From positions 1-59,940 of the forward strand of contig JBEKDJ010000001.1 of assembly GCA_050014415.1 (NCBI GenBank): 59,940 nt of DNA. Direction: 5' to 3'. Shown here piece after piece: positions 40,184 through 58,745 of the stretch. The notes beneath the pieces were generated by a model. That model worked only from the letters and a program-made list of their open reading frames with translations, did no database searches and was not told the origin of the DNA. How positions within the stretch are numbered: position 1 is the first letter of the stretch; the number at the start of each line of letters is the position of its first letter. A program made the translations under genes and the position numbers. The stretch is from Thermodesulfobacteriota bacterium (GTDB taxonomy: Bacteria > Desulfobacterota > BSN033 > UBA1163).

Positions 40184-40606
40184 ATGAAAAGTCCGACAGT
40201 GATCACAGGCACAGTAGGTATGGATGCTCACGTCATTGGCACCAAAATACTATCCCGTGCTTTACGGGAGGCTGGTTTCAACGTCGTGGAGCTGGGAATC
40301 TTGACTCCTCCGGAGGAGTTTATTCAAGTCGCCATCGAAACAAATGCGGATGCGATCTTAATGAGCTCCCTTTACGGCATGGCCGAGCTAGATGTAAGGG
40401 GATTCAAGGAGAAGTGCGTCGAAGCGGGGCTCGAAAATGTGCTGCTTTACATCGGCGGTATCCTTGGCGTGGGCAGGCACGATTTCAAAGAGGATGAAAT
40501 CAAATTCAAAAGGCTGGGCTTCGACAGGGTCTATCCGCCCGAGGTGGATCTCAAGGGGCCCATTGCAGATCTCTGGACAGACTTGAAGGCCAAAGGGAAG
40601 GCTTGA
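40184..40606 (+). CDS. glmS: methylaspartate mutase S-subunit homologue (B12-binding)
   Basis: DxHxxG base-off/His-on motif (MDAHVIG), ILMSSLYG, LLYIGG. Start placed at ATG 40184, 9 nt after GGAGG; the track start is 40145. Confidence 0.9.
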   Translation: MKSPTVITGTVGMDAHVIGTKILSRALREAGFNVVELGILTPPEEFIQVAIETNADAILMSSLYGMAELDVRGFKEKCVEAGLENVLLYIGGILGVGRHDFKEDEIKFKRLGFDRVYPPEVDLKGPIADLWTDLKAKGKA

Positions 40607-40616
40607 GGTTTGTGAG

Positions 40617-41864
40617 ATGCAAAGAAGGAGAATGTTAGAAGGCTGCCGCGCACTAGACTTGACAGACGAAAAAGGATTTCTGTGCGGCAAGATCCTTGCC
40701 GACCTGGGCATGGATGTTATCAAGGTCGAAAGACCGGGCGGGGACCCATCCCGAAGGCTCGGCCCGTTCTGGAACGATCAAGCTGACCCGGAGAAGAGTC
40801 TCTACTGGTTTGCTTACAACAGTGACAAGCGTGGGATCACCCTCGACATCGAATCAAAAGACGGGAAGAGGATCTTTGAAGAACTGGTCAGGAAATCGGA
40901 CGTTGTCATCGAGTCCTTCAAACCCGGTTATCTAGACAAGCTGGGATTGGGGTATGCTGCATTGAGCGGGATCAAGAAAGAGATCATCGTAACGTCCATA
41001 ACACCCTTCGGTCAGACGGGTCCTTACAGCAGCTATGAGGCGTCTGACATCGTGCTTATGGGAATGGCAGGAGAGCTCTTCCTGACCGGCGAGGGGGACC
41101 GTCCGCCGTTGAACATTAGTGTACCGCAGGCCTGTCTCCATGCGGGTGCGGATGCAGCAGTGGGCACAATGATCGCGTACCACCATAGAAGGAAGACCGG
41201 AGAAGGGCAGCACGTCGATGTGTCGATGCAGCAAAGCGCCGCGTGGTTCCTGGCCTTCACCGTGCCCTACTGGGAGATCGACAAGGTCATCCTGGGCAGG
41301 GTAGGTCCTTTCAGAAGAAGCAGCAGCAGCGGCACCGTACAACGACAGGTGTGGCCGTGCAAGGACGGTTACGTCTTCTTCTACATGATGGGAGGTCAGC
41401 AGGGCGCAAGGCAGTGCCGCCCGCTGGTTAGATGGATGGAAGAGGAGGGGGCGGGTGACGAGTTCCTCCGGACCTTTGAGTGGGAGCGCTTCGACATGCC
41501 GACGGCCACCCAGGAACTCATAGACAAAATCTCGAAGCCCATCGCCGATTTCTTCCTCACCCGGACGAAGATAGAGGCCCTGGATGCCGCAGCATCGAGA
41601 AACATTCCCATCTGCCCGCTCTTGGGCATGCAGGACATACTCGACGATCCAAACCTCTCGGTGAGGGGGTACTGGTCCCAACTCGAATACCCAGAGCTGA
41701 ATGTAACCATCCCCTACCCGAAGCAGTTTGTGAGGTCTTCTGAGAACGAGGTGTCGACTGGTTTCAGGGCGCCGCTTATCGGCGAACACAACGCCGAGGT
41801 TTATGGTGAGATCGGATTCTCTCGACATCAAATTGTGGCCTTGAAAGAGGCAGGGGTGATCTAG
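40617..41864 (+). CDS. family III (CaiB/BaiF) CoA-transferase, paralogue 4
   Basis: 415 aa. ALDLTDEKGFLCGKILADLGMDVIKVE. Catalytic Asp motif HAGADAAVGTMIAY. Confidence 0.85.
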   Translation: MQRRRMLEGCRALDLTDEKGFLCGKILADLGMDVIKVERPGGDPSRRLGPFWNDQADPEKSLYWFAYNSDKRGITLDIESKDGKRIFEELVRKSDVVIESFKPGYLDKLGLGYAALSGIKKEIIVTSITPFGQTGPYSSYEASDIVLMGMAGELFLTGEGDRPPLNISVPQACLHAGADAAVGTMIAYHHRRKTGEGQHVDVSMQQSAAWFLAFTVPYWEIDKVILGRVGPFRRSSSSGTVQRQVWPCKDGYVFFYMMGGQQGARQCRPLVRWMEEEGAGDEFLRTFEWERFDMPTATQELIDKISKPIADFFLTRTKIEALDAAASRNIPICPLLGMQDILDDPNLSVRGYWSQLEYPELNVTIPYPKQFVRSSENEVSTGFRAPLIGEHNAEVYGEIGFSRHQIVALKEAGVI

Positions 41865-42036: not shown

Positions 42037-42600
42037 ATGAGTGGCCACACTCGATTCGAGAAGCTGCTTGAGCCAGGTTATATCGGGTCGGTAAAGACCA
42101 GGAACCGGATCATAAAAACCGGTGCGGGAATGCTCATGTGGCACAAGGACGACGTCCACATGAGGGAAGAGGTAAAGGCTTTCTACGAAAGGATGGCCAG
42201 GGGCGGAGTGGGGCTGCTCATCGTAGAGTCGCCCACCATCGATTATCCTCTGGGCGCGCGCTGGAGGCAACGCTATCGCATCGACGATGACAAATACATT
42301 GAAGGTCTCGGAAAACTGGTTGAGGTCGTCCATAAACACGGCTGTCCCACTTTAATCAGTGAGGTCAAGGAATATGTAGAGATAACGGGCAAGGGGCTCA
42401 CCATTATCAATAAAGAAGGAGAAAGGCAGGTCATCGAGGCCGATACCGTCCTAACCGTCCTGCCGTTGACGCCCAATATGGGGCTGGTGAAGAGCCTGAA
42501 AGGAAAGGTTTCCGAGGTCTACGGCATTGGCGACTGCAAGGAGCCCCATTTGATAGCGGATGCCATCGGCATCAGCCTCCGGACCGCTCGCGCCGTCTAG
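42037..42600 (+). pseudogene. internally deleted OYE-type 2-enoate/2,4-dienoyl-CoA reductase remnant
   Basis: The first 105 aa or so are the start of an OYE TIM barrel (IGSVKTRNRIIKTGAG...ARGGVGLLIVE...VHKHGCPT). This joins directly to the last 80 aa or so of the FAD/NAD(P) domain (VYGIGDCKEPHLIADAIGISLRTA). About 450 aa are missing relative to the intact paralogue at 54333-56222. Confidence 0.6.
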
Positions 42601-46213: not shown

Positions 46214-46307
46214 GTTTCGACGGCCCTCTCGACCAGGCGACCCTGGCCGGGAAGTGCAAACAAGTAGGACAGGAGTTAGAATTCGTATTGTAAGGAGGCG
46301 TCAGAAA

Positions 46308-47069
46308 ATGGCGGAAGGGTTTGAGGGAAAGGCAGTGCTGGTAACCGGAGGAGGCTATGGGATAGGTCGGGCAGCGGCCTTAGGCTTTGCTCGGAGGGGG
46401 GCAAAAGTCGCGGTAGCAGACATAGACATCAAGAATGGGAAAGAAACCGTTCGCCGTATCAAAGAGGCGGGAGGTGATGCGGTTTTCGTGAAGGCCGACG
46501 TGTCACAGGAGGCTGAGGTCGAAGCCCTTATTAAGAAAACCGTCGAAACTTACGGCAAGCTAGACTGCGCCTTCAACAATGCGGGTATTCACAAGGTGTT
46601 TGTCTCCACCGTCGACTTCACTGAAAAGGACTGGAATGAAATGATCGACATCAACCTCAAAAGCGTATGGCTCTGTATGAAATATGAAATCCCCGAGATG
46701 CTGAAACAGGGCAAAGGAGCCATCGTTAATACGTCGTCGGCAGCAGGTTTGATCGCCGCGCCGAGCAACCCTGCCTATCCCGCGAGCAAGCACGGGGTTG
46801 TGGGATTGACAAAATCGACTGCCGTGGAGTTTGCGAGGAGGGGCATCCGGGTCAATTGCGTCTGCCCTGGCCCCACACGGACAGGAATGCATGACAGCTT
46901 GGTGGCCATTGCTCCACAAATCGTTGAGGCGATGAATATGAAGGTGCCGATGGGGCGGATAGCCGAGCCCGAAGAGGTTGCTGCAGCTGCCGTCTGGCTC
47001 TGCTCAGACGAGGCCTCCTATATTACGGGTCACGCCCTGCCCGTAGATGGCGGTCTGGTAGTGGATTGA
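46308..47069 (+). CDS. SDR family oxidoreductase
   Basis: TGGGYGIG, NNAG, YPASK (YxxxK), PVDGG. ATG 46308 is preceded by AAGGAGG; the track start at 46254 is an unlikely extension. Confidence 0.9.
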   Translation: MAEGFEGKAVLVTGGGYGIGRAAALGFARRGAKVAVADIDIKNGKETVRRIKEAGGDAVFVKADVSQEAEVEALIKKTVETYGKLDCAFNNAGIHKVFVSTVDFTEKDWNEMIDINLKSVWLCMKYEIPEMLKQGKGAIVNTSSAAGLIAAPSNPAYPASKHGVVGLTKSTAVEFARRGIRVNCVCPGPTRTGMHDSLVAIAPQIVEAMNMKVPMGRIAEPEEVAAAAVWLCSDEASYITGHALPVDGGLVVD

Positions 47070-47472: not shown

Positions 47473-48945
47473 ATGGTAGAAATTACTGAGAACACCGATC
47501 TCGTTGTGATCGGGTCTGGAGCAACAGGCACGGTGGCAGCCTTGACCGCCGCAGAAGGCGGCGCCAAGGTGATCCTTATTGAGAAGATGCGAAGCCTGGG
47601 GGGGGTCTCGAATTTCGCCGAAGGGATGTTTGCTGCGGAGAGTGATATGCAGCGTCCACAGTATGTCACCTACGATCGCGACGTCGCCTTCAAGACGATC
47701 ATGGAGTACAGCCACTGGCGCGCCAACCCGCGTTTAGTGAGGGCGTTTGTGAACGAGACTGCCGCCACAATCAGCTGGTTGCAAGAGCGCGGAGTGGAGT
47801 TCGAGGAACTCTCGACTAACATGCCCGACGGCCCTCTGGTCTGGCATGTCTTGAAGGGGCCGGATCGAGAGCGGGCATCCCTTATGATGAAGACGCTGGC
47901 TGCCAAGGCCAAAGAGAGAGGCGTTGCCTTCTGGCTGGGGACACCGGCAAAAGAACTGATCAAGGAGGGCGGCAAGATCACCGGCGTGACTGTCGAGAAG
48001 GATGGCAAAGAAGCCCAGGTGAGCGCCAAAGCTGTCCTTGTGGCTACGGGTGGCTACGCAAACAACAAGGAATGGATCAAGAAGTATACGGGATTTGACC
48101 TCGGTGTCAATCTGATTCCAATCGGTAACATTGATAAGATGGGTGAAGGCATCCGGATGGCCTGGCAGGTAGGCGCGGCTGAAGAGGGCATGGGCGTCCT
48201 CCAACTCCTCAGGGGAGGACCGGTATTGGGCCCGGGTCTCAGTTTCATTGGACCGATCGAAAGCGCGGCGTCCCAGCCCGGCCTTTGGGTGAATCAGGAT
48301 GGAGAGCGCTATTGCGACGAAAGCATTCAAGGCAACTTTTCCCTCGATGGCAACGCCATGGTCAGCCAGAGAGGGAGATATGTCTATGCGATTTTTGATG
48401 AGTCGAATGTTCGTCATTGGATGGAAAAGGGAACGGACCTGGGTACAGGCCGCATTTTCCCTCCCGGGAGCCGCCTCAATATCGGTCCGGCGCTGAAGGA
48501 TGCACTTAAAAACAACGCCCCTGACATATATGCCGCGAAAACCATAGAAGAGCTGGCCGTGAAAATCGGGATGGATCCCCTCATCCTAGAGGCTACCGTC
48601 GAGGAATACAACGGATTCTGTGAGAAGGGCCATGACGACCTCTTTGCCAAGGATCCAAAATACCTCCGACCCTTGAAGGAACCGAAGTTTTATGCCCTCA
48701 AGTGTAACGCAGTCTTCCTGGGAACACTCGGCGGCATCAAGATCAACCACAAAATGGAAGTAGTGGACAAGAAGGACAATCCGATCCCAGGACTCTACGC
48801 AGGGGGAATGGATGCGGGAGGAATCTATGGAGACTCTTATGACGTAATGACGTGTGGCGGGACCCTTGCCTTCGCCATCAATTCCGGCCGCATTGCGGGG
48901 AGAAATGCCCTGGAATATATCGGCAAACAAACTCGCCTGTGCTGA
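47473..48945 (+). CDS. soluble FAD_binding_2 flavoprotein (fumarate reductase / 3-ketosteroid dehydrogenase / TcuA-like), paralogue 1
   Basis: 490 aa. N-terminal dinucleotide fold DLVVIGSGATGTVAALTAAEGGAKVILIEK, ATGGYANN, C-terminal GLYAGG. No signal peptide. Confidence 0.85.
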   Translation: MVEITENTDLVVIGSGATGTVAALTAAEGGAKVILIEKMRSLGGVSNFAEGMFAAESDMQRPQYVTYDRDVAFKTIMEYSHWRANPRLVRAFVNETAATISWLQERGVEFEELSTNMPDGPLVWHVLKGPDRERASLMMKTLAAKAKERGVAFWLGTPAKELIKEGGKITGVTVEKDGKEAQVSAKAVLVATGGYANNKEWIKKYTGFDLGVNLIPIGNIDKMGEGIRMAWQVGAAEEGMGVLQLLRGGPVLGPGLSFIGPIESAASQPGLWVNQDGERYCDESIQGNFSLDGNAMVSQRGRYVYAIFDESNVRHWMEKGTDLGTGRIFPPGSRLNIGPALKDALKNNAPDIYAAKTIEELAVKIGMDPLILEATVEEYNGFCEKGHDDLFAKDPKYLRPLKEPKFYALKCNAVFLGTLGGIKINHKMEVVDKKDNPIPGLYAGGMDAGGIYGDSYDVMTCGGTLAFAINSGRIAGRNALEYIGKQTRLC

Positions 48946-49013
48946 CTTGGCAAGTCGCGGGAGGAGAGGTCTTTTCCCGCGTGGGTTATTGAACCAAAGA
49001 TTAAGGATCAACA

Positions 49014-50681
49014 ATGAATTATGAGCGGGTTTTTGCGAAGGCTAGATCTGACTGCAGCTATCTCAGTGATCGAGGTTACATCAAGATTTATGTTGGATCG
49101 TCGACAGACGATTCGGTTGCTGCCAGTGTATTGAGCAGTCTTCAAGCGGAGACTGCCAAACGCAGCATGAAAGTAAAAGTGATCGCAACGGGATCTTTCG
49201 GATACGATGATCTTGAGCCCCTTGTATTGATCGAGAAACCAGACAAACCTGCTGTCTTGTACAACAACATGACTCCGGAGAAAGCTTCTGAGCTGCTAAG
49301 CGACTATTTGCTGAACGACAACCCTAGACCGGACATGGCCCTTTGTAGCATCGGCAGTGACAGAATAGAGAATATCCCTCATAGCTCTGATCTGCCTTTA
49401 TTCAATCTGCAAGAACGAATCGCCTTACGCAACTGCGGCACCATCGACCCGGGAAATATCAACCACTCTATAGTGCGCGGGCAAGGCTATAGCGGACTTT
49501 CAAAGGCTTTGCAGATGGACCGACCGGACGTGGTAGAAGAAGTTAGAAAGTCCGGGTTGAGGGGGCGAGGGGGGGCTGGCTATGCAACGGCAGACAAATG
49601 GAAAGCCTGCCTCGATGCAGAAGGAAGCGACAAATATGTGATCTGCAATGCTGTCGATGCAGATCCGCGAGCACGTACGGCGCGACTGCTTCTGGACGGC
49701 GACCCTCACTCTGTTCTGGAAGGTCTGATGATCGGGGCATACGCTGTTGGCGCATCGCATGGCATCGTTTGTGTGAACGCAGGGTACGGCCGTGCAATAG
49801 AAAGGCTTAGGAGGGCATTAGCTCAGATGAGGGAATATGGACTTCTGGGCAATGACGTCCTGGGTTCAACCTTCAGTTCCGAAATAGAGATCGAGGAAGT
49901 GACAGCATCTCTTGTCTCAGGTGAGGAGACTGCCCTCCTCCGTTCCCTAGAAGAAAAACAGGTGCTGCCTTACTTGCGCCCACCCTATCCCGCTATGAGT
50001 GGATACTCAGGCAAGCCCACGTTGATCAGTAATGTAGAGACCCTGTCCGACGTGTCGGCCATTTTTCAAAATGGTTCGAAATGGTACTCCCGTTTTGGAA
50101 CGGAACAGAGCAAGGGAACCAAGGTGGTTACTCTATCAGGCAATGTAGCTCATCAATATACTGTTGAAATTCCCTTTGGAACAACCCTTCGGCGCATCGT
50201 CGAGAATATCGGGGGAGGAGTTCCGAACGGTAAAACGATCAAAGCGGTGCAGGTGGGCGGCCCGACGGGAGCCTATTTTGCTTCTGATTCTCTGGACCTT
50301 CAAGTCGATTATGAGATTATCAGGGAAGCGGGGTCTATGATCGGTTCGGGAACAGTCGAAGTCTTCGATAGCGATTCATGCGCTGTTGAAATGACCGAAG
50401 AGATCCTCTCTTATGTTCAGACTCAGTCATGCGGTAAATGCGTTTTCTGCCGTGAAGGGACCTATCAGATGTCTGATATCTTGAAAGACATTTCTGAATA
50501 TATGGGCAAGCCTCAGGACCTTGCGCTGCTGAGTGAGCTGGGTGAAGAGATGAAGATCGGCTGTATATGCGGTCTCGGCCAAACTGCTTCTAATCCTGTT
50601 CTGAGCAGCATCAGACTCTTCCGCCACGAGTATGATGCCCATATCAATGGGAAAAGATGTCCCACGAATAGCAAGCCTTAG
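49014..50681 (+). CDS. NuoF-like NAD(H)/FMN/[4Fe-4S] subunit with Cys-poor thioredoxin-like N-domain
   Basis: GLRGRGGAGYATADKW (FMN site), ICNAVDADP (NADH site variant), SLBB region, N3-type cluster CGKCVFCREG...C. The first 120 aa or so lack a four-Cys cluster. Confidence 0.85.
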   Translation: MNYERVFAKARSDCSYLSDRGYIKIYVGSSTDDSVAASVLSSLQAETAKRSMKVKVIATGSFGYDDLEPLVLIEKPDKPAVLYNNMTPEKASELLSDYLLNDNPRPDMALCSIGSDRIENIPHSSDLPLFNLQERIALRNCGTIDPGNINHSIVRGQGYSGLSKALQMDRPDVVEEVRKSGLRGRGGAGYATADKWKACLDAEGSDKYVICNAVDADPRARTARLLLDGDPHSVLEGLMIGAYAVGASHGIVCVNAGYGRAIERLRRALAQMREYGLLGNDVLGSTFSSEIEIEEVTASLVSGEETALLRSLEEKQVLPYLRPPYPAMSGYSGKPTLISNVETLSDVSAIFQNGSKWYSRFGTEQSKGTKVVTLSGNVAHQYTVEIPFGTTLRRIVENIGGGVPNGKTIKAVQVGGPTGAYFASDSLDLQVDYEIIREAGSMIGSGTVEVFDSDSCAVEMTEEILSYVQTQSCGKCVFCREGTYQMSDILKDISEYMGKPQDLALLSELGEEMKIGCICGLGQTASNPVLSSIRLFRHEYDAHINGKRCPTNSKP

Positions 50682-50686
50682 ACCTA

Positions 50687-52807
50687 TTGGGGAAGTGTGA
50701 TTTGGAAGCAATTAAACTTAACATCGACGGGCGTGCGATCGACACACAAAAAGGGAAAAGCATACTCGAGGCGTCCCTTGAAGGGGGCCTATACATTCCG
50801 CATCTTTGTCATCATCCTGATCTTTCGCCCATCGGCGCCTGCAGATTATGCGTCGTAGAAGTGGAAGGCATAAAAGGACTTCTAACTTCGTGTACGACGC
50901 CGGCTTCGGACGGAATGATCGTCAAGACCAAGACTGAGAATACAAACCACATGCGCCGGCTCGCCATGGAACTGATGCTTGCCGGGCATCCGCCCGATTG
51001 TGGAACATGCATCAAGTACCTCAATTGTGAGCTTCAGTCTATCAAGCAGTATCTCATGAGCGAGCATTTAAGTGTAAAGAGACGTTCAAAACTATTCCCG
51101 GTTAATACAGGCAACCCGCTCTTTGCACACGATCCCAACAAGTGCGTTCTTTGCGGCCGCTGTGTGAGGGCATGCCATGAACTTCGCGGTGTCGGTGTGC
51201 TCTTCTACAAAAAGAAGGGGAAAGAGACCTATATTGGCACAGCTTCAGATCTACCACTTGCTGATTCCGGCTGCAGATTCTGCGGCGCCTGTGCTGAAGT
51301 CTGCCCTAGCGGCGCCATCATGGATAAGGAAGAGTTTGCAAAAGGGAAAAGCCGAAGAGTTGCTCTGGTTCCCTGTAGATATGTCTGTCCGGCGGAAATA
51401 GATGTTCCGAGATATGTCCGCTTTATCAAGGAAAAGGATTATTCTGCAGCCACCGCCGTCATAAGGGAAAAGGTTCCTTTTCCCAAAGTGCTCGGTTATG
51501 TATGCGATCATCCCTGTGAAACGGCCTGTCGCAGGGGTGAGGTCAATCAGCCGATATCGATCAGGGATCTCAAGCGCTACGCTGCTGAGCATGATGAGCA
51601 AAGTTTTTGGAAGAAGCATGCAAACAAGAAACCTTCAACCGGCAAGGAGGTTGCCATTATCGGCTCTGGCCCAGCGGGTCTCACTGCGGCTTACTATCTT
51701 TCAAATCAAGGTCATGGAGTGACCGTATATGAGGCATTGCCTCTTGCAGGAGGAATGTTGCGTTTTGGAATTCCCGCATACCGTCTCCCCAGAAAGGTGC
51801 TCGATAGTGAGATCGAAGATATGGAAAATATAGGTGTGGAGATACTGACCAACACGCGTATCGAATCCATTGATAGGCTTTTTGAGCAGGGTCATGACGC
51901 CGTTCTTGTAGCGATCGGGGCCCATAAGGGCATGAAACTTTCCATTCCCGGAGCTGATAAAGAGGGTGTACTGATCAGCATTGATTTCTTGAGGGATGTC
52001 AATACAGGAAAGAAGGTCAGTCTTGGGAAGAAGGTTATGGTGTTGGGCGGCGGCAATGTCGCCTTTGACTGCGCCCGCATTGCGCGACGACTCGGTGCTG
52101 AACAGGTGTACATCGCCTGCCTTGAATGCAGAGCGGATATGCCAGCCGCCTGCGATGAAATCGATCAGGGAGAAGAGGAAGGTATTTCGATCCATCCTTC
52201 CAGGACGTTTACGCGGATTCTCAGTGAGAACGGGAAGATTACGGGAGTGGAATTCCTGGAGGTTGAGTCATTTAGCTTTGACGAAGATAAAAACGTTCAG
52301 ATTCAAGTTATTGAAAATTCCCATCATGTTCTTGAAGCGGATACCGTTATCTTCGCGGTGGGTCAGCGGCCAGAAATTCCAGCAGGCTTCGGCCTTGACA
52401 CTGCTGCAAATAGCCTCATAGAGCTAGACTCCTACACTTTTAGTACAAGCAGGGAAGGGGTGTTTGCCGCAGGCGACGCGGTGATCGGAACGGCATCTGT
52501 CATCAAGGCCATCGCTTCAGGCAGAAGGGGCGCGATCGCCGTGGACAAGTTTCTTGAAGGCACGGGAAATATCGATCAGAAGCTGGCTCCCGTTTCAGAG
52601 CCTGAAAAATGTCTCGGCCCGGGAGAAGACTTTTCATCAATGACCCGTTGCGAAGAATCCTGCATGCTGCCGGAAGAACGGCTACAGAGTTTCTGCAAGG
52701 TGGTGCAAGATATGGCTGAGAAAACTGCGGATTACGAATCGAAGCGTTGTCTGCAGTGCGACCTAAGACTGAAGATTGCGCCTGTGAAATTCTGGGGGAA
52801 TTACTAA
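50687..52807 (+). CDS. Fe-S / flavin fusion: NuoG-type [2Fe-2S]+His-ligated [4Fe-4S], 2x[4Fe-4S] ferredoxin, and GltD/NfnB-like NAD(P)H FAD oxidoreductase
   Basis: IDGRAI..CRLCVVEV, HPPDCGTCIKYLNCELQ, CVLCGRCVRAC / CRFCGACAEVCP, then the Fer4_20-type Cys region (CPAEIDVP, CDHPCETAC), VAIIGSGPAGLTAAYYL and VLGGGNVAFDCA. The start is TTG 50687 or TTG 50702. Confidence 0.85.
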   Translation: MGKCDLEAIKLNIDGRAIDTQKGKSILEASLEGGLYIPHLCHHPDLSPIGACRLCVVEVEGIKGLLTSCTTPASDGMIVKTKTENTNHMRRLAMELMLAGHPPDCGTCIKYLNCELQSIKQYLMSEHLSVKRRSKLFPVNTGNPLFAHDPNKCVLCGRCVRACHELRGVGVLFYKKKGKETYIGTASDLPLADSGCRFCGACAEVCPSGAIMDKEEFAKGKSRRVALVPCRYVCPAEIDVPRYVRFIKEKDYSAATAVIREKVPFPKVLGYVCDHPCETACRRGEVNQPISIRDLKRYAAEHDEQSFWKKHANKKPSTGKEVAIIGSGPAGLTAAYYLSNQGHGVTVYEALPLAGGMLRFGIPAYRLPRKVLDSEIEDMENIGVEILTNTRIESIDRLFEQGHDAVLVAIGAHKGMKLSIPGADKEGVLISIDFLRDVNTGKKVSLGKKVMVLGGGNVAFDCARIARRLGAEQVYIACLECRADMPAACDEIDQGEEEGISIHPSRTFTRILSENGKITGVEFLEVESFSFDEDKNVQIQVIENSHHVLEADTVIFAVGQRPEIPAGFGLDTAANSLIELDSYTFSTSREGVFAAGDAVIGTASVIKAIASGRRGAIAVDKFLEGTGNIDQKLAPVSEPEKCLGPGEDFSSMTRCEESCMLPEERLQSFCKVVQDMAEKTADYESKRCLQCDLRLKIAPVKFWGNY

Positions 52808-52850
52808 TCTGGATCCAACGGCATTTCAACCAGAGCAAGGGAGGGGAACC

Positions 52851-54299
52851 ATGGACAGAACAACTGCAGAAACCGACGTTATCGTGATCGGCTCCGGTGT
52901 TTCAGGACTGGCTGCGGCACTAACCTCGGCAGAAGGCGGCGCAAAGGTCATCGTTTTTGAAAAGCAGCGCTCTCTGGGAGGAACTTCCAACTTCTTCGAT
53001 GGCATGTTTGCAGTAGAAAGCGAGATGCAGCGGCAGAGATACATCAAATATAGCCGGGATGAAGCATTTAGGAAGATCATGGAATACAGCCACTGGCGGG
53101 CAAATGCTCGTCTGGTGAGAGCCTTTGTCAATGAATCGGGAGGTACCATTGCCTGGCTGCAGGAGAAAGGGGTTGAGTTTAGCGACGCGACGATCAATAT
53201 GCCCGACGCCCCCCGGACCTATCACGTGGTTAAAGGACAGGGAGCGGCTGTGGTGAAAGCACTTTCTACCAGAGCAAAAGAAAAGGGAGTTGATCTCCGG
53301 CTGGCAATACCTGTCCAAAGAATCCTCAAAGAAGGCGGCAGGGTCGCCGGCGTCATTGCGGAGGAGAATGGTGAGGACATGCAGGTGGCTGGGAAGGTGG
53401 TCATCATTGCCAGCGGCGGCTATGCCAACAATAAGGAATGGATAAAGAAATACGCGGGGTTTGATCTGGATGTCAATGTGATTCCCGTTGGCAACGTCGA
53501 TAAGATGGGAGACGGCATTCGCATGGCCTGGGAGGTCGGTGCGGCTGAGGAAGGTCTTGGGGTATTAGAGTTGTTCCGCGTTGGTCCTGTGGGACCGGAA
53601 TTTGCCATGAAGGGGCAGATCGAGTTTATCGCCGCCCAACCTGACCTCTGGGTCAACCCACGGGGGGAACGGTTCTGCGATGAAGGGATTGCATTCTACG
53701 ATACTTCAGTAGGCAATGCGAATGCCAGACAGAAAGAAGGTTTCACCTATAGTCTATTTGATGAGTCGATCAAGGCGTACGTGATTGAGAAAGGAATTGA
53801 CAGGGGTGTGGGGATGGATAATCCTCCTGGCACCCGGCCCGTGGACTTCGACAAAGAACTGAACGCCGCCGTTGAAAAGGGGAGCACAGAGGTATTTGTG
53901 GCAGACTCCATAGAGGAATTGGCCGGGAAAATGGGGGTGAACCCAACTGTATTGAAGACGACGGTTCTTGAATACAACGGATTTTGCGAGAAAGGCCATG
54001 ATGATTTCTTCGCCAAGGACCCGAGATACCTCCGGCCGCTCAAGGGCCCGAAATTCTACGCCGTGAAGGCCCGAACTGTCTTTTTGGGAACCCTCGGAGG
54101 GATCAAGATCAACCACAAGATGGAAGTGGTGGATAAGAAGGGCAAAGTCATTCCCGGCCTCTACGCTGTCGGGTTTGATGCAGGTGGTATGTGGGGAGAC
54201 AGCTATAGCATCAGGAATTCCTCCGGCGCTTCGGCAGGGTTTGCGACTAATTCCGGCCGCATTGCCGGAAAGAATGCCCTGAAATACATCGGGAAATAG
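52851..54299 (+). CDS. soluble FAD_binding_2 flavoprotein, paralogue 2
   Basis: 482 aa, collinear with 47473-48945. By eye, roughly half to two-thirds of positions are identical (for example GGYANNKEWIKKY, EYNGFCEKGHDD, LGTLGGIKINHKMEVVDKK). Confidence 0.85.
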   Translation: MDRTTAETDVIVIGSGVSGLAAALTSAEGGAKVIVFEKQRSLGGTSNFFDGMFAVESEMQRQRYIKYSRDEAFRKIMEYSHWRANARLVRAFVNESGGTIAWLQEKGVEFSDATINMPDAPRTYHVVKGQGAAVVKALSTRAKEKGVDLRLAIPVQRILKEGGRVAGVIAEENGEDMQVAGKVVIIASGGYANNKEWIKKYAGFDLDVNVIPVGNVDKMGDGIRMAWEVGAAEEGLGVLELFRVGPVGPEFAMKGQIEFIAAQPDLWVNPRGERFCDEGIAFYDTSVGNANARQKEGFTYSLFDESIKAYVIEKGIDRGVGMDNPPGTRPVDFDKELNAAVEKGSTEVFVADSIEELAGKMGVNPTVLKTTVLEYNGFCEKGHDDFFAKDPRYLRPLKGPKFYAVKARTVFLGTLGGIKINHKMEVVDKKGKVIPGLYAVGFDAGGMWGDSYSIRNSSGASAGFATNSGRIAGKNALKYIGK

Positions 54300-54332
54300 T
54301 GGATTGGAGTATTCGGGAAGGGGGGTTCTGAG

Positions 54333-56222
54333 ATGGCGGAATACAAACATATCTTTACACCCATAAAAATTGGCAGGCTGACGGTAAAGAACCGGATCGA
54401 GGCTGCTCCTGCAGGGCCCATGCTGGCTGGCATCGATGGTGATGTCACAAGAGAATTAGTTGAATGGGAAAGGGCGTTAGCCAAAGGGGGAGCAGGGATT
54501 GTCACGATAGGTGATACTCCTGTCGTAAGTGAAATTCCTATGAGGGTGGGGCATCTCATTGATCTGGGAACGGATAAATCGGTCAACGTGTTGAACAGGC
54601 TTGCGGAACCCATACAGAGGTACGGCGCCAAGGCATCCATTGAATTGACCTATCATGACTACTTTGTTCACCACTCTCCTACAGAGATGACGCTGGAAGA
54701 AATCAAGAGGCTCATCGATGCTCATGCCAACGCGGCTTACCGCTGCTTGATTGCGGGCATGGATATGATTATGGTTCACACGGCCCATGGACATCTGGTG
54801 AGTCAGTTCCTTTCACCGAAGAATAACTATCGTACCGACGCCTATGGTGGTTCCTTCAAGAACAGGGCGAGGTTTGCCATCGAAATACTTGAAGCGATCA
54901 GAAATAAGGTGGGAGACAGATTGGCGATTGAGTATCGTATCAGCGGTGATGAATTGGCGCCCGATGGATTAACGTTAGAAGAGCAGCTTGAGTTCTCCAG
55001 AATGATTCAGGATAAGATTGACCTGATACACGTATCGGCGGGGAAGCTTTATGAAGAGAAAACTATTCCGAGGATCTTCCAACCCATATATATCCCCCGT
55101 GGTGTCAACGTTTATCTTGCGGAGCGGTTCAAGAAAGAACTGAAAATACCTGTTACCACAGTCGGGTCCCTTAACCTTGAAATGGCTGAACAGATCCTTG
55201 CCGAAAACAAAGCGGATATTGTTGCCATGGCCCGTAGTCTTATTGCCGATCCCGACGCTGTCAATAAGGCAAAGAAAAGGAATGAGGATACGATCAGGCC
55301 GTGTGTCCGCTGCAATACGTGTATTGATCTGTCACACAGGACCTTATTGCCCGTTCATTGTGCCGTCAACCCCCTTGCTGGGAGAGAAGCGGAATTTTTG
55401 AGCCTTCCATTACCTGCCAAAAAGAGAAAGGTCGTTGTCGTGGGCGGAGGACCGGCAGGTATGGAGGCTGCAAGAAGAGCTGCAGATCGAGGCCATGAGG
55501 TGGTTCTCTTTGAAAAAGACGCACAGTTAGGTGGATCTTTAGTCATGGCTTCTGCGATGCCCTTTAAGACCGATATGAAAGCATATCTGGATTGGGCAAT
55601 ACGTACAACAATGAATACCCTTCGTTTGACGGTCAAATTATCTACGGAAGCGACGCCTGAGAGAATAAGGGTGGAGAACCCCGATGCCCTGATTGTCGCC
55701 GTGGGTTCTACTCCTATTATTCCGAAAATGCCAGGGATTAATAGGAAAAATGTTGTTTGGGCGGGAGATGTAGACTTGGGGAGAGTAAAGGTTGGCGAAA
55801 GGGTGCTTGTGGCAGGTGCAGGAATGACAGGTTCAGAAACGGCATTATACCTGACACAGCAGGGAAAGAAGGTCACCTTGATTGATATGCTATCTTTGGA
55901 AGAGATCGATGCAGAATATCCTTTTGTCAATATTATATCTTTACGGGGAATGATGAAGGATCTCAAGGTTGACATTAAGACAGAAGTGAAACTGGAAGCG
56001 ATCACGGACACAGGCGCTGTTGTTACAGACAAAAACTGGAACAAGGTCGAAATACCCTGCGATACCGTCGTTCTTGCTGTGGGTGTGAAACCTCGTACCG
56101 AAGTTGTCCGCATGTTTGAGGCTTTGGCCCCTGAGGTCTATATGGCTGGTGACTGCAATAAGGAAAGGGGCAATTTGTATAGCGCCACGCTGCAAGGATT
56201 CTTCGCAGCGATGGAGATCTGA
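54333..56222 (+). CDS. OYE-family FMN/[4Fe-4S]/FAD 2-enoate reductase / 2,4-dienoyl-CoA reductase-like oxidoreductase
   Basis: 629 aa. OYE barrel (IGRLTVKNRIEAAP, HTAHGHLVSQFLSP), Cys cluster CVRCNTC...C, then VVVVGGGPAGMEAA and VAGAGMTGSE dinucleotide folds, and AGDC near the C-terminus. Confidence 0.85.
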   Translation: MAEYKHIFTPIKIGRLTVKNRIEAAPAGPMLAGIDGDVTRELVEWERALAKGGAGIVTIGDTPVVSEIPMRVGHLIDLGTDKSVNVLNRLAEPIQRYGAKASIELTYHDYFVHHSPTEMTLEEIKRLIDAHANAAYRCLIAGMDMIMVHTAHGHLVSQFLSPKNNYRTDAYGGSFKNRARFAIEILEAIRNKVGDRLAIEYRISGDELAPDGLTLEEQLEFSRMIQDKIDLIHVSAGKLYEEKTIPRIFQPIYIPRGVNVYLAERFKKELKIPVTTVGSLNLEMAEQILAENKADIVAMARSLIADPDAVNKAKKRNEDTIRPCVRCNTCIDLSHRTLLPVHCAVNPLAGREAEFLSLPLPAKKRKVVVVGGGPAGMEAARRAADRGHEVVLFEKDAQLGGSLVMASAMPFKTDMKAYLDWAIRTTMNTLRLTVKLSTEATPERIRVENPDALIVAVGSTPIIPKMPGINRKNVVWAGDVDLGRVKVGERVLVAGAGMTGSETALYLTQQGKKVTLIDMLSLEEIDAEYPFVNIISLRGMMKDLKVDIKTEVKLEAITDTGAVVTDKNWNKVEIPCDTVVLAVGVKPRTEVVRMFEALAPEVYMAGDCNKERGNLYSATLQGFFAAMEI

Positions 56223-56370: not shown

Positions 56371-57786
56371 ATGTTGAGAGATAAACGTGAATCCTTGTCC
56401 GAAAAAGGGAAAGGAGAGACTTTTCCCTGGATAGGTACTGCCCTGACGAAAGACTGGACAAAGGGCTCCATCCTTGGCAACCTCCTATCGTTGTCCTGGC
56501 CCATGATGATGATGGAGACTCTCTACGTGGTGAGCCAGATCGTTGAGATGATCTGGATAGGGAGGCTGGGACCATCTGCTATTGCCGGGGTGGGCGTTGC
56601 CAATATCGTTCTTTTTTCAGTGATGTCTATGGATTTCGGATTCATCATCGGGATGAGAGCCATGGTCGCCCGTCACGTGGGAGCTGGTAATATCGCAGGC
56701 GCAAATTACATTGCAGGGCAGGCCTTTGTTCTGAGTGTTATCTGGGGTGTATTGATCACGGGAGCAGGTGTCCTTCTGGCCGAACCGATCATCAGGATGT
56801 TCGGTGTGGAGTCTCAGGTTATAACGGAAGGAACGGCATATCTGCGCGTTATGTTTGCTGGCTGGGTGACCATGGAAGTCCTGGTCATGGGCCTCTACGT
56901 TATCCAGTCTTCAGGAGATACGATGACCCCACTGAAAATAGAATTTTCTATCAGAGTGGTCCACGTGACTCTTTGCCCCTTCCTTGTCAAAGGCTTATGG
57001 ATATTCCCTCAACTCGGTGTCAGAGGAGCAGCTCTCAGTAATGTCATTTCTCAGATCCTGGGAGCAGGTCTGGGGTTATGGTTACTCTTTAGAGGGCATA
57101 CCAGGCTGAGGCTTACTCTGAGCCATTTCCGTTTTAGTCCCAATATTATCTGGCATATCTTGAAGATTGGCGTTCCTGCCTTGGTCATGAACCTGCAGAG
57201 ATCCTTGGGTGATATCGCATTGACATTGTTTATTGTCCCCTTTGGTACTCTGGCTGTGGCTGCTCATAGTCTTGCATCGAGGGTAGACATGTTCCTGTCC
57301 CTGCCGGGGATGGGATTGGGTTCAGGGGCTGGTGTGCTGGTTGGTCAAAACCTTGGGGCGCATCAGCCTGAGAGGGCAGAGAGAGGCGCCTGGCTCGCAG
57401 TGGGATTTGTGGAAGCCTTTATGGTTGCCTGTTCGATAGTGATTCTTTTATGGGCGGAAAATATAATAGGCATCTTCACGACCGAGGCCAGTCTTATACG
57501 CCTGGGTAGCATCTTCCTCAGAATAGCCACCGGAAGCTACCTGATATTGGCTCTCGTCTTTGTGTTGCAGAGTTGTATCGCAGGCGCCGGCGATACCATC
57601 CCCAATATGATCATTAATATAGGCATGATTTGGGTGGTGCAATTGCCCCTTGCATTTCTTTTACCTTGTATCACCGACCTCGGCATCTTCGGAGTGCGGT
57701 GGGCGATCGTGGCGAGCACATTCGCAGGGACAATCGTCTACGTGACCTACTTCAAATGGGGAAGATGGAAGACCAAGAGGGTATAG
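56371..57786 (+). CDS. MATE family efflux transporter
   Basis: 471 aa, 12 predicted TM helices, typical MATE N-terminus (ILGNLLSLSWPMMMMETLYVVSQIVEMIWIGRLG). Confidence 0.85.
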   Translation: MLRDKRESLSEKGKGETFPWIGTALTKDWTKGSILGNLLSLSWPMMMMETLYVVSQIVEMIWIGRLGPSAIAGVGVANIVLFSVMSMDFGFIIGMRAMVARHVGAGNIAGANYIAGQAFVLSVIWGVLITGAGVLLAEPIIRMFGVESQVITEGTAYLRVMFAGWVTMEVLVMGLYVIQSSGDTMTPLKIEFSIRVVHVTLCPFLVKGLWIFPQLGVRGAALSNVISQILGAGLGLWLLFRGHTRLRLTLSHFRFSPNIIWHILKIGVPALVMNLQRSLGDIALTLFIVPFGTLAVAAHSLASRVDMFLSLPGMGLGSGAGVLVGQNLGAHQPERAERGAWLAVGFVEAFMVACSIVILLWAENIIGIFTTEASLIRLGSIFLRIATGSYLILALVFVLQSCIAGAGDTIPNMIINIGMIWVVQLPLAFLLPCITDLGIFGVRWAIVASTFAGTIVYVTYFKWGRWKTKRV

Positions 57787-57983
57787 GGTGTTCGATACAG
57801 AAATCTCATCAAGAGGGTGAGGAAGGGACATGACTATATCAAGACTCAGGAGATATATTGTGACAGACGTAAAACGCAACCCAGAGTTTTTTTCTTATCG
57901 AACCGATCCTGCTCAAGACTTATCCAGCCCTCGCAGTTTGCCAACCCCAGTACTGCACAGTCGGCGGAAATAGTGCAGAACGC

Positions 57984-58745
57984 TTGGTCAAATCGATGGA
58001 GAGCAATATGACTTCTCCTCAACAGGATTTGGTCATTTTGGAAAAATTCAATTTCGACGTGAAACCTGTGACTGCGAGCTTCCTGATCAGGCCACCTGAA
58101 AGAGTCCCGAGACTGGAGGCGAAGATGACCTTCTGTCAGATGATAAGAAGGGCTCAGGAGGGCGAACCGTTCTACGCGGATTCAGAGAATCATGCCTGCG
58201 AAGTGGGGCCCTTCATACTGGGGGGTCAGGATATTCCACCGCCTTTTTTTCGGGGAGAATATGGGGTGGCGCATAAACACTTCAGGGAACCGCGGGCTAT
58301 GAGAAGGATTTATCGAATAATCCCGAAGCTGGAAAAGAATGTCGTGAGCTGCGTTGCCTTTTCCACAGTGGATCAACTGTCAATTGAACCGGATGTGATC
58401 ATCTTTGTGGCTGATTTTGATCAGACGCAGATTCTGTTAAGGGCAATGAGTTATACCACCGGACAGCCTTACACCAGCAAGTTCACAGGCGTGATGGGCT
58501 GCGCATGGCTCTTCATCTATCCGTACCTGACGGGAAAACTGAATTATGTGCCTGCGAACTTCAGTGCAGGAATGAAGTTGCTCAAAGTCTTTCGTGACGG
58601 TACGATCGTAACATCTATTCCTTATCAATTGTTGCCTACGGTCTTAAGAAACCTGCAGGAAATGCCGTGGATTCTGCCTCTTCATCAAGCGGATGGAGAA
58701 GAGTTCCGGGAGCGACTGAGAAGAGACCTGGGGATTGATGGATGA
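57984..58745 (+). CDS. DUF169 family protein (uncharacterised)
   Basis: About 250 aa. The FCQMIRRAQEGEPFYADSENHACEVGPFILG pattern resembles DUF169/COG2043 as I recall it. Start ambiguous: TTG 57984, ATG 57996 or ATG 58008. Confidence 0.55.
   Translation: MVKSMESNMTSPQQDLVILEKFNFDVKPVTASFLIRPPERVPRLEAKMTFCQMIRRAQEGEPFYADSENHACEVGPFILGGQDIPPPFFRGEYGVAHKHFREPRAMRRIYRIIPKLEKNVVSCVAFSTVDQLSIEPDVIIFVADFDQTQILLRAMSYTTGQPYTSKFTGVMGCAWLFIYPYLTGKLNYVPANFSAGMKLLKVFRDGTIVTSIPYQLLPTVLRNLQEMPWILPLHQADGEEFRERLRRDLGIDG

Follow-up and report, generated by a model that had tools for sequence, protein, structure and literature searches.

Two adjoining open reading frames, first described in an earlier note, were recovered at 49014–50681 and 50687–52807 on the + strand of the window (the whole stretch of DNA analysed, 59,940 nucleotides). 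The first encodes a NuoF-like subunit of 555 aa, hereafter B, identified by Pfam, solved-structure matches and a family alignment, and the second a fusion subunit, hereafter A, of 706 aa in its longest open reading frame (Pfam, NCBIfam, solved-structure matches, alignment). On the same strand the pair is preceded by a short-chain dehydrogenase (SDR; 46254–47069; Pfam) and a FAD_binding_2 protein of 490 aa (47473–48945; Pfam, NCBIfam), and followed by a second FAD_binding_2 flavoprotein of 482 aa, hereafter R (52851–54299; Pfam, synteny), and by an OYE/FadH/BaiCD-type Fe-S flavoenzyme of 629 aa that continues the same run of genes (54333–56222; Pfam, NCBIfam). Intergenic gaps between 47473 and 56222 are short, which counts for a joint unit, and no terminator-like sites were found on the + strand of this interval. 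At least four family III CoA transferases, an enoyl-CoA hydratase, MmgE/PrpD, SDRs and a B12 mutase were assigned by Pfam in the surrounding window.

Cofactor sites of the two subunits

Subunit A matched Pfam Fer2_4, NADH-G_4Fe-4S_3, 4Fe-4S dicluster, Fer4_20 and Pyr_redox_2; these matches and the alignment agree with its initial description as a NuoG-type N-terminus joined to ferredoxin-type clusters and an NfnB/GltD-like flavin domain, and the N-terminal part is of the NuoG/HoxU type. Translation probably begins at TTG 50702 and not at 50687, giving 701 aa: database copies have this length, most relatives begin at this point, and the sequence GGGGAAG precedes it. Six clusters are predicted (one [2Fe-2S] and five [4Fe-4S]), and all predicted ligands are invariant across 36 relatives. 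On the + strand these are C41, C52, C55 and C69 for the [2Fe-2S] cluster (50807–50893; Pfam Fer2_4), H101, C105, C108 and C114 in a His-ligated [4Fe-4S] motif (50987–51028; Pfam NADH-G_4Fe-4S_3), C153/156/159/163 and C196/199/202/206 for two ferredoxin-type [4Fe-4S] clusters (51143–51304; Pfam Fer4_7, Fer4_Nqo3), and C230, C234, C273, C277 and C281 for [4Fe-4S] ligation in the GltD domain (51374–51529; Pfam Fer4_20). The invariant C-terminal CLQC (C688, C691; 52748–52759, +), aligned to 9bov_A, 8oh5_C and 4ylf_B, gives Fe-S ligands that are found N-terminally in stand-alone NfnB, a circular permutation also present in StnC. The two GltD-domain clusters were not listed in the earlier note.

The flavin domain of A contains a FAD-binding fold, GSGPAG (aa 326–331), with a conserved R366 (51647–51772, +; alignments), the equivalent of StnC Arg239 (PMC7483475). 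A second dinucleotide fold, GGGNVAFDCAR...IACLECR, follows at 52034–52144 (+; alignments), with invariant E480 at the place where NfnB and StnC, which depend on NADPH, have YRR. With the invariant CLE instead of YRR, the domain is not of the NADPH type and an Stn-like role as an NADPH transhydrogenase is unlikely. By the general Rossmann-fold rule, this E-type site would be specific for NADH.

Subunit B matched Pfam Complex1_51K (3.3e-33) and NADH_4Fe-4S (3.2e-27), with a weak SLBB match, and scored 370.8 with TIGR01959, below the cut-off of 558.65. The B subunit of a bifurcating NiFe-hydrogenase, 7t2r_B, aligned to residues 21–552 (E 4.8e-143). Pfam and ligand alignment support the proposed NuoF-like identity of B, its FMN site and its N3 cluster: the N3/B1 [4Fe-4S] ligands are C473, C476, C479 and C519 (50430–50570, +; Pfam NADH_4Fe-4S, alignment), of which C479 is kept in at least 90% of 35 relatives and the others are invariant. 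The degenerate thioredoxin-like N-terminal domain (approximately aa 1–150; 49014–49463, +) was aligned to the HydB N-terminal domain (7t2r_B 6–100), and B has Y, T, S and Y at the positions of the four cysteines that bind [2Fe-2S] there. The first 140 aa hold only two cysteines (C14 and C111), and the [2Fe-2S] ligand set of this domain is missing family-wide in the B alignment, in accord with the original view that the region lacks a four-Cys cluster. B also stops short of the 2x[4Fe-4S] domain with which Bfu B subunits end, a feature that had gone unmentioned, and no C-terminal CxxCxxCxxxC motifs were found in B.

The glycine-rich FMN/NADH loop GLRGRGGAGYATADKW of B (aa 181–196; 49554–49601, +; alignment) is near-invariant among 35 relatives and is the counterpart of NfnB loop 1, which contacts NADH (PMC11829005). 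NADH contacts in the NfnB structure, namely Phe159, Lys164, Glu274, Phe294 and Gly156 (PMC11829005), are kept in the alignment as Y/F190, K195, E304/E305, Y325 and G187, respectively. The motif CNAVDADPRARTAR (aa 211–224; 49644–49685, +; alignments) is atypical, canonical proteins having CNADEGDPGAFMDR. Its CNAVDADP core, already flagged as unusual, was confirmed as such against CNADEGDP and is conserved across the family (V214 in 22/35, D215 in 34/35, D217 in 33/35 and P218 in 35/35).

Related enzymes and loci

Stn (8oh5) and NfnABC (9n5u, 9bov) were among the best solved matches to both subunits (9bov_A, 8oh5_C and 9n5u_A for A). The Bfu/Stn-like label of the earlier note stands as regards homology to the large subunits and fails as regards the defining Bfu features: BfuC and the C-terminal ferredoxin domain of BfuB are both missing, and membership of Bfu or Stn was rejected. 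These two parts together form the ferredoxin site, and BfuC cluster C1 belongs to the [B1-FMN-C1] bifurcation site (PMC9304861, PMC11829005, PMC12018979). A further difference lies in domain order, the GltD part being inserted after the [2Fe-2S] domain in StnC and appended C-terminally in A; comparison with StnC shows no molybdopterin-like domain in A. On sequence grounds, the two-gene module is a stripped-down relative of the electron-bifurcating Nfn/Stn enzymes, with the bifurcation parts gone.

NuoE, stated earlier not to be encoded here, was not found in the 60-kb window by Pfam in the large ORFs (≥140–150 aa, all but 40617–41864), by Cys-motif search of the window, or by an HMM from real NuoE proteins run against six-frame stop-to-stop frames of at least 60 aa, which returned nothing even at E ≤ 10. 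Among 86 related loci, the GltD domain was of the E type in 83 and of the YRR type in two (L057, L059). Complete, cluster-bearing NuoE was detected in 0/83 E-type loci, many of which are short contigs. Two of them (L031, L046) carry a cluster-less N-terminal half of NuoE adjoining a NuoF-like protein with CNAAEGDP and were counted as intermediates; the remainder gave no match. The two YRR loci were the sole loci with a complete NuoE, which is adjacent, and have a canonical 643-aa BfuB with CNADEGDPGAFM, sharing approximately 53% identity with B, and no FAD_binding_2 protein. The B motif tracks NuoE across loci, with NADEGDPG accompanying the full protein, NAAEGDP the truncated form, and the modal NAVDADP type none.

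The link between the pair and FrdA-like neighbours drawn in the earlier note was strengthened by the survey. Flanks of 2 kb or more were available on each side in 40 E-type loci, and in 37 of these a FAD_binding_2 protein is encoded within 5 kb of the pair. In five loci a NuoF relic is fused to FAD_binding_2; in one of these (L063:8010–10766, 918 aa) the relic, with N3 and 2x[4Fe-4S], and its FAD_binding_2 part come directly after the fusion gene. The R gene directly follows the pair in L001, L002, L004, L005, L008 and L009/L010, and L001, as in the window, has several FAD_binding_2 paralogues near the pair. The three-gene unit is constant amid flanks that vary by locus (Fur/FeoAB, FAD_binding_4/CCG, CoA transferases), and L008 and L009 have it without CoA-dependent catabolic pathway genes around it. 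SDR genes are found close to the pair in many related loci, as is an OYE-type enzyme in L001, L002 (locus edge), L011, L012, L013, L045 and L053/L054.

The FAD_binding_2 proteins flanking the pair are 60% identical. R was found to lack a signal peptide and to contain no domain for electron input. Fumarate-reductase catalytic residues are not conserved in R, the catalytic Arg being Tyr in the window protein. The top NCBIfam model for both paralogues was VprA, a reductase, at 381–386 bits (below the cut-off of 600). Judged from sequence, R is likely the catalytic reductase and the conserved third gene of the module, with the 47473–48945 paralogue as a possible alternative client.

Proposed electron path and alternatives

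The explanation considered best, at somewhat better than an even bet, is that A, B and R make up a soluble iron-sulfur flavoenzyme, a non-Bfu, NADH-linked wire serving an FrdA-like substrate reductase. Its basis is homology, cofactor ligands, losses, the E-for-RR switch, synteny and gene fusion in relatives, all seen directly. The cofactors would be FAD, one [2Fe-2S] and five [4Fe-4S] clusters in A and FMN with one [4Fe-4S] cluster in B; R would be an FrdA/UrdA/VprA-like flavoprotein, and the three may form a complex. A and B would have descended from the Nfn-Bfu/Stn lineage, losing NuoE together with its [2Fe-2S] cluster C1 and, within B, both the N-terminal cluster and the C-terminal domain that binds ferredoxin. 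The linear wire left would run from the GltD-type FAD through its two clusters and the NuoG-type clusters to N3/B1 and FMN, the path seen in NfnABC structures, where the GltD-type FAD is not the flavin that bifurcates and electrons leave it along one path only, A7-A6-A3-A2-A1-B1 (PMC12018979). NADH would be taken at one of the flavin sites of the pair, and electrons would flow towards R. Against this reading, the C-terminal cluster domain that connects the relic with R in fused relatives is missing from window B; the NuoF-like gene is absent from 11 related loci in which the upstream flank reaches 2.3 kb or more, so B is dispensable in those loci; and L011 has the pair and an OYE-type enzyme with no FAD_binding_2 within 8 kb. 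No description of a NuoE-less NADH-linked wire serving FrdA-like reductases was found in the literature.

A new flavin-based electron-bifurcating or confurcating enzyme is the strongest competitor, though an unlikely one. NADH would be oxidised at one flavin, e.g., the GltD-type FAD as in NfnSL, with one electron passing downhill to the FrdA-like subunit and a high-potential C=C substrate and the other to a low-potential acceptor (ferredoxin or an OYE-type reductase); the reverse could also operate. Three flavin sites would be available (FMN, FAD and the FAD of R), and, if the substrate of R is an enoate-type C=C compound, its gap from NADH would be comparable in size to the one between NADH (-320 mV) and crotonyl-CoA (-30 mV), approximately 300 mV, which is exploited through bifurcation by anaerobe Bcd/EtfAB and CarCDE (PMC12018979). 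Also in its favour are the hosts, which include the energy-limited anaerobes Dehalococcoidia and Syntrophorhabdales, the Nfn flavin-tuning Arg (StnC R239) retained as R366, the recurrence of OYE-type Fe-S flavoenzymes and AFOR genes near related pairs, and the module variants of gut Lachnospiraceae, which retain the B3/B4-type cluster domain, the ferredoxin-binding part of Bfu enzymes. However, the known Bfu site is unable to form without NuoE, the GltD-type FAD of NfnABC has one exit path and does not bifurcate, the cluster domain of the fused relatives leads to R rather than to ferredoxin, and no conserved ferredoxin gene adjoins the module.

Less probable still is an oxidative module, in which the FAD_binding_2 proteins (and the OYE-type enzyme) would act as desaturases in CoA-dependent catabolism, comparable to KstD or ChcC, and A and B would pass the electrons to NAD+, whose reduction needs extra driving input. 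The surrounding genes, the B12 mutase among them, have a catabolic look. The nearby CoA transferases, hydratase, SDR and PrpD would fit such a pathway with R as a dehydrogenase, as would the failure to find an acyl-CoA dehydrogenase or ETF among the window ORFs scanned, the matches of R to ketosteroid and oxocyclohexanecarboxylate dehydrogenase models (NCBIfam), and the Tyr in place of the fumarate-reductase Arg. Nevertheless, C-C desaturation (~0 mV) cannot reduce NAD+ (-320 mV) uncoupled and a coupling site is not evident; the three genes of L008 and L009 do without these pathway genes, and the best model of both paralogues, below its cut-off, is a reductase.

It is improbable that A and B are a stand-alone NADH-dependent oxidoreductase (e.g., a diaphorase, an NADH:ferredoxin reductase or an artificial-acceptor reductase) unrelated to the flavoprotein neighbours, with synteny reflecting shared regulation only. 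The pair would suffice as a complete wire between two flavins, and L011 lacks a nearby FAD_binding_2, but the association elsewhere extends across phyla in otherwise unrelated surroundings, the NuoF relic is covalently fused to FAD_binding_2 in relatives, and R has no electron-input domain. Least likely of all is a canonical Bfu/Stn-type bifurcating transhydrogenase with NuoE encoded elsewhere in the genome, for which the Stn and NfnABC matches, the other NuoE-bearing Bfu clusters usual in Dehalococcoidia genomes (PMC9304861) and the view of 60 kb of the genome speak, and against which stand the 83 E-type loci, in none of which a complete NuoE was detected, unlike the YRR-type pairs, which it adjoins, the C-terminal ferredoxin domain that the ferredoxin site needs and B lacks (PMC12018979), the change of the NADPH-type YRR to CLE in A, and the truncated NuoE of L031 and L046, which indicates decay, not relocation.

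Under the preferred explanation, A and B most likely supply the FAD_binding_2 flavoproteins with electrons from NADH. A point against it is that the pair has two flavin sites of the pyridine-nucleotide type, the FMN of B and the FAD of A, where a simple NADH:substrate reductase would need fewer, which hints at some form of coupling. The wire would be tied to NADH, not NADPH, and re-used for electron delivery to R, which, having no NAD(P)H site, would reduce a C=C or similar bond of an organic substrate other than fumarate.

Gene string and domains of the two proteins

Genes on the + strand were read in the order short-chain dehydrogenase (SDR; 46254-47069, 271 aa), FAD_binding_2 flavoprotein (47473-48945, 490 aa), NuoF-like protein B (49014-50681, 555 aa), fusion protein A with a NuoG-type N-terminus and a GltD domain (50687-52807, 706 aa), FAD_binding_2 flavoprotein R (52851-54299, 482 aa) and OYE/FadH-type flavoenzyme (54333-56222, 629 aa). 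The earlier note had placed the pair between two FrdA-like flavoproteins, and FAD_binding_2 matches were obtained on both sides. Gaps between genes of the string 47473-56222 were 5 to 68 nt, and no + strand terminator-like site was found inside it by a promoter and terminator scan, whose counts were otherwise at chance level. The start codon of the A gene is probably TTG 50702, in keeping with the 701-aa length of database copies and with a purine-rich GGGGAAG upstream.

B was matched by the Nuo51 FMN domain PF01512 (3.3e-33), the NuoF Fe-S domain PF10589 (3.2e-27) and, weakly, SLBB (20.5 bits, cut-off 27) in Pfam, and all four cysteines of the N3 cluster (the NuoF-type [4Fe-4S], or B1) were conserved in the family alignment, which bears out the FMN site and N3 cluster predicted from the sequence. 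The FMN-binding (IPR011538), SLBB (IPR019554; weak) and NuoF Fe-S (IPR019575) domains of the Bfu definition are thus present in B, and its C-terminal 4Fe-4S ferredoxin-type domain (IPR017896; clusters B3/B4) is missing. No CxxCxxCxxxC motif was found in B, whose chain is 555 residues long and does not extend into the two-cluster ferredoxin domain; two of these motifs are present in each of the canonical B subunits of three loci from other genomes or metagenomes (L057, L059 and L006). B is ~53% identical to canonical BfuB over its whole length. Assignment as a true complex I NuoF was ruled out (TIGR01959 equivalog, 370.8 bits, cut-off 558.65).

The N-terminal region of B was aligned with 7t2r_B, the B subunit of a bifurcating NiFe-hydrogenase. 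A thioredoxin-like domain is kept and the four [2Fe-2S] cysteines are replaced by Y, T, S and Y, as expected of a region said to lack the cluster; these cysteines are missing across the whole B family. The atypical NADH-site motif is real, B reading CNAVDADPRARTAR where CNADEGDPGAFMDR is expected, and is conserved in the family. We did not take CNAVDADP to prove that NADH binding has been lost: B keeps the NADH-contacting residues of the NfnB structure, and its FMN site may therefore still bind NAD(H). Across loci, the NAVDADP-type loop tracks loss of NuoE, not loss of NADH contacts; in work on Aquifex and E. coli NuoEF this loop was reportedly linked to the adjacent NuoE cluster.

Domains of A were ordered Fer2_4, His-ligated NuoG cluster motif, 4Fe-4S dicluster, Fer4_20, FAD fold and second dinucleotide fold (Pfam). 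The ligands predicted for its six clusters, one [2Fe-2S] and five [4Fe-4S], were all invariant in 36 relatives, and with the Pfam matches these ligands uphold the proposed NuoG-type N-terminus, two ferredoxin-type clusters and NfnB/GltD-like domain. The [2Fe-2S] ferredoxin (IPR001041) and 4Fe-4S ferredoxin-type (IPR017896) domains of the Bfu definition are both found in A (Fer2_4, NADH-G_4Fe-4S_3 and Fer4_7 matches). At the end of the second Rossmann strand, A has IACLECR where 9bov_A has LYRRTR, 8oh5_C IYRRTI and 9n5u_A VYRRSK, and E480 within this motif was invariant in the 36 relatives. Because an invariant Glu stands in place of two Arg, the GltD-type site of A would prefer NADH to NADPH by the standard Rossmann-fold rule. 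Fusions with CLE at this position are called E-type below. Assignment of A as an NADPH-dependent glutamate synthase small subunit or NfnB was ruled out (NF009454, 483.8 versus 916; NF009410, 455.7 versus 516), and the JGI label of formate dehydrogenase subunit was rejected because the molybdopterin domain is missing.

Elsewhere in the window, a putative catabolic island starts near 26 kb, after the housekeeping genes relA, dnaE, mutL, guaA and guaB. Glutamate-mutase-like B12 enzyme genes were located at 33921-35288 (- strand), 38673-40136 and 40145-40606 (parts: Met_asp_mut_E, B12-binding subunit and MutL-type reactivase), set among at least four family III (CaiB/BaiF) CoA transferases, a CoA_trans protein, enoyl-CoA hydratase, MmgE/PrpD and SDRs. 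The ORF 42037-42600 (187 aa) holds the first ~100 residues of OYE (Oxidored_FMN) and an apparent FadH-type C-terminal tail, and is probably the leftover of an internally deleted gene. A MatE-DUF169 pair occurs at 56371-58745 and in L001, and DUF169 alone in L014 and L057; DUF169 genes repeatedly adjoin the module or its relatives at these loci.

NuoE search and comparison with known systems

The missing NuoE partner reported in the earlier note was sought by Pfam, motif and dedicated HMM, and none was found in the 59.9-kb window. Pfam gave no NuoE in ORFs of at least 140-150 aa (all large ORFs except 40617-41864), a motif search gave no NuoE CX4C...CX3C motif in the window, and the HMM gave no NuoE at E ≤ 10 in six-frame stop-to-stop frames of at least 60 aa. 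Six genuine NuoE ORFs, representing five distinct genes, went into the HMM, which scored 218-286 bits on true NuoE genes of control loci; it was used because an earlier phmmer probe, the HydB N-terminal domain, had detected L006, L007 and L059 and missed the true L057 NuoE. Neither the Bfu subunit BfuC (NuoE-like, IPR002023/PF01257) with its [2Fe-2S] cluster C1 nor a Stn/NfnABC heterotrimer with NuoE-like StnA/NfnC was therefore found in the window.

The likeness to Bfu and Stn put forward earlier held for the homologous domains and the top structure matches. The three best solved matches of A, and chains within the top five of B, were Stn/NfnABC (StnABC of Sporomusa ovata, PDB 8oh5; NfnABC, PDB 9n5u and 9bov). 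Shared features were the NuoF-type FMN and [4Fe-4S], the [2Fe-2S], His-[4Fe-4S] and 2x[4Fe-4S] clusters, and the GltD-type FAD domain with two clusters. In both, the CxxC ligands come after the GltD core, an order circularly permuted with respect to stand-alone NfnB. The likeness broke down in subunits, motif and domain order. Stn is defined as a heterotrimer including a NuoE-like subunit (PMC7483475), whereas the window pair has none, and in B neither the C-terminal 2x[4Fe-4S] domain nor the N-terminal metal site is present. In StnC/NfnA the order is [2Fe-2S], inserted GltD, NuoG/Fdh-like; in A, GltD is last, at the C-terminus, and there is no molybdopterin-like/Fdh-like domain (706 aa versus 963-1178 aa in StnC/NfnA). 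The NADPH motif YRR of Stn/NfnABC is CLE in A. The partner in the window, unlike that of Stn/NfnABC, is a FAD_binding_2 flavoprotein, by which the ferredoxin has apparently been replaced.

Non-bifurcating NuoF-type diaphorases (HoxFU, FdsBG, NuoEFG) resemble the pair in joining a NuoF-type subunit to an Fe-S subunit of the HoxU/NuoG-N-terminal type; A is matched at aa 8-222 by NF005745 HoxU, and FdsB aligns with B from residue 36. Electron transfer in the pair is plausibly linear, as in these enzymes, none of which has a fused GltD domain or a FAD_binding_2 client. To our knowledge, HoxFU of NAD-reducing hydrogenase, FdsBG of NAD-dependent formate dehydrogenase and complex I NuoEFG all keep a NuoE-type [2Fe-2S] subunit or domain. 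NfnSL (NfnAB) and GltD/DPD-type NADPH domains share with A the FAD, two [4Fe-4S] clusters and second dinucleotide fold (4ylf_B, 217 bits), and differ from it in that the GltD domain of A is circularly permuted and fused, has E480 for the NADPH-binding arginines and has no NfnS-type partner.

On balance, the window pair was read as a module that would simply supply FrdA-like reductases with electrons from NADH; derived from Bfu/Stn, it would have lost its bifurcation core and been re-used for flavoprotein reductases. In NfnABC, the GltD-type FAD opens a single path A7-A6-A3-A2-A1-B1 (PMC12018979); by homology, a linear wire would run from the FAD of A to the N3 cluster and FMN of B.

A new bifurcating or confurcating design is unlikely. 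The Bfu family (HydABC-type; Schut et al. 2022) is defined by a BfuBC core (PMC9304861), and its bifurcation site is the [B1-FMN-C1] flavobicluster (PMC11829005). This flavobicluster cannot form in the window pair because two defining features, the BfuB ferredoxin-type domain and BfuC, are missing, and Bfu-type bifurcation is not expected because C1 and both C-terminal domains are missing. It is equally doubtful that E-type fusion, NuoF-derived adaptor and FrdA-like reductase make up an unrecognised class of flavin-based electron-bifurcating enzymes. If they did, the class would have arisen from Nfn-Bfu, a high-potential C=C reductase having taken the place of the BfuC/ferredoxin end, and NADH oxidation would drive both substrate reduction and the making of low-potential reductant. 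Members of such a class would be found widely, ranging from Dehalococcoidia of the subsurface to abundant Lachnospiraceae of the human gut (such as Agathobacter rectalis), and, being naturally 'C1-less', could be used to test the flavobicluster model for bifurcation in Bfu enzymes.

The partner flavoprotein

For a supply module, the client would be R or its paralogue. FAD_binding_2 partners of the window (~482-490 aa) have the flavoprotein fold only (Pfam), and no signal peptide was found in the window FAD_binding_2 copy. Their best-scoring NCBIfam model was that of vinylphenol reductase VprA; scores were below cut-off over a full-length alignment (NF053717 equivalog, 381.0 and 385.6 bits, cut-off 600), and VprA was ruled out. 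Other models gave 140 bits (Fcc3) and 124 bits (UrdA). R was ruled out as a fumarate reductase or flavocytochrome c3, as H365, R402, H504 and R545 align to F242, Y283, G413 and R455: both substrate-binding His are missing, and the catalytic Arg R402 is Tyr in R and Y, D, N or W in relatives.

R falls in the superfamily of the soluble FAD_binding_2 reductases (flavocytochrome c3, UrdA, VprA, THDR) and differs in its predicted donor, the NuoF/NuoG/GltD module rather than a haem domain, flavinylated FMN domain or Etf. Tetrahydrodaidzein reductase (THDR) of the equol cluster is fumarate-reductase-like, 486 aa long, and turns over substrate without added NAD(P)H; the cluster comprises an OYE-type reductase, an SDR, THDR and putative electron-transfer genes without assigned role (PMC4965515, PMC8898433). 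This cluster parallels the window string in gene types and THDR size. A module that runs oxidatively is rather improbable, and supply of electrons from NADH to R is preferred.

Relatives in other genomes and metagenomes

More than 100 relatives of B were recovered (55-74% identical, ~555 aa), the named ones from Dehalococcoidia or Chloroflexota. The A family is better conserved (at least 70% identical, 701 aa) and includes Syntrophorhabdales and Spirochaetes MAGs. A contig scan with a single B protein gave only 4 loci, too few for statistics, and was replaced by context look-ups of exact proteins and by a search of metagenomes with the A-family alignment; the latter gave at least 551 relatives, and the best 80 loci were annotated. 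Looked-up loci had the order NuoF-like, fusion, FAD_binding_2 (482-486 aa) in unrelated surroundings (Fur/FeoAB, FAD_binding_4/CCG and CoA transferases, once each). A tungsten-type aldehyde:ferredoxin oxidoreductase (AFOR) gene was found within ~10 kb of the module in L002 (18184-20013), L009 (15796-17616), L011 (12132-14021) and L053 (4938-6794), not in the window, a recurrence reminiscent of the published Wor-Bfu association.

Fusions were E-type ('ACLE'-type) in 83 of 86 non-identical loci; one locus ended before the motif, and L057 and L059 had YRR, as do NfnB, StnC and NfnA. Only two of the 86, L057 and L059, had a complete NuoE (PF01257; L057, 162.7 bits) together with a 643-aa B subunit of canonical type, carrying CNADEGDPGAFM and CxxCxxCxxxC twice, and had no FAD_binding_2 nearby. 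At L057 (7576-12118) and L059, NuoE and BfuB are followed by a 705-aa BfuA with GltD at its C-terminus, like A in architecture but with the subunits that the window lacks; this looks like a compact Nfn-Bfu architecture unlike the 960-1180-aa StnC/NfnA. L031 (2888-4872) and L046 (795-2785) appear to be evolutionary intermediates: their truncated NuoE gene, an N-terminal half, covers HMM positions 4-77 only and so is without the [2Fe-2S] domain, and the NuoF-like neighbour (567-569 aa) keeps the N-terminal cysteines and reads CNAAEGDP. We describe the history of A and B as reductive evolution of an Nfn-Bfu-type enzyme.

Partners of the E-type fusion were a full-length NuoF-like gene on the upstream side, the arrangement of the window (22 loci), a ~400-aa relic downstream without FMN-domain match and with N3 and a 2x[4Fe-4S] domain (25 loci, human gut), such a relic joined to FAD_binding_2 in one 918-aa protein (5 loci), or a partial or other NuoF-like gene upstream (7 loci); none was seen in 24 loci, 11 of which had at least 2.3 kb upstream. 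The human-gut metagenome contig L083 (5708-13337) encodes a 705-aa E-type fusion, a 403-aa relic (no Complex1_51K, or FMN-domain, match; N3 and 2x[4Fe-4S] present) and a 483-aa FAD_binding_2 protein, a three-part variant also found among L060-L093. Its 90%-identity clusters hold 1682, 812 and 656 member sequences. L083, the one gut locus looked up, is Lachnospiraceae / Agathobacter rectalis; the 1682-member cluster is the gut fusion protein, with NCBI labels 'MULTISPECIES [Lachnospiraceae]' and Agathobacter rectalis. The 918-aa protein of L063 (8010-10766), directly 3' of the fusion gene, joins a relic (NADH_4Fe-4S and 4Fe-4S dicluster) to FAD_binding_2, and the same type occurs in L072, L081, L091 and L093. 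In L063 and L034, the fusion gene has an FMN_red-family gene just 5' of it.

A tie of the pair to its FrdA-like neighbours, raised as a possibility from the window, gained support: FAD_binding_2 lay within 5 kb in 37 of the 40 E-type loci whose flanks reached 2 kb or more on each side, and the relic is fused to it in five loci. This fusion is the strongest evidence that module and flavoprotein would act as one enzyme, and suggests electron exit via the NuoF-derived subunit. In three more loci the third gene was SDR-displaced, a few kb off, or an OYE-type enzyme instead; that the pair is a stand-alone oxidoreductase with no relation to these neighbours is nonetheless very unlikely. Each characterised NuoF-type flavoprotein known to us (complex I, Hox, Fds and all Bfu enzymes) has a NuoE-type [2Fe-2S] partner. 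Supply of NuoE in trans to the pair is the most improbable reading, a complete NuoE being detected by HMM in 0 of the 83 E-type relatives.

The pair belongs to a large conserved family without a detected complete, cluster-bearing NuoE and with step-wise intermediates in metagenomes. No description of the NuoF-like/fusion/FAD_binding_2 gene combination was found in the searchable literature, and the current annotations 'NADH-quinone oxidoreductase subunit F', 'formate dehydrogenase beta subunit' and 'glutamate synthase-like' are all misleading. Variants without NuoE offer natural tests of the part that the NuoE cluster and the C-terminal domain of BfuB play in bifurcation. Many cytoplasmic FAD_binding_2 reductases, such as THDR, have no NAD(P)H site or known donor, and the module is a candidate donor. 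Since relatives occur in abundant gut Lachnospiraceae, it may matter for the reductive metabolism of dietary or host compounds.
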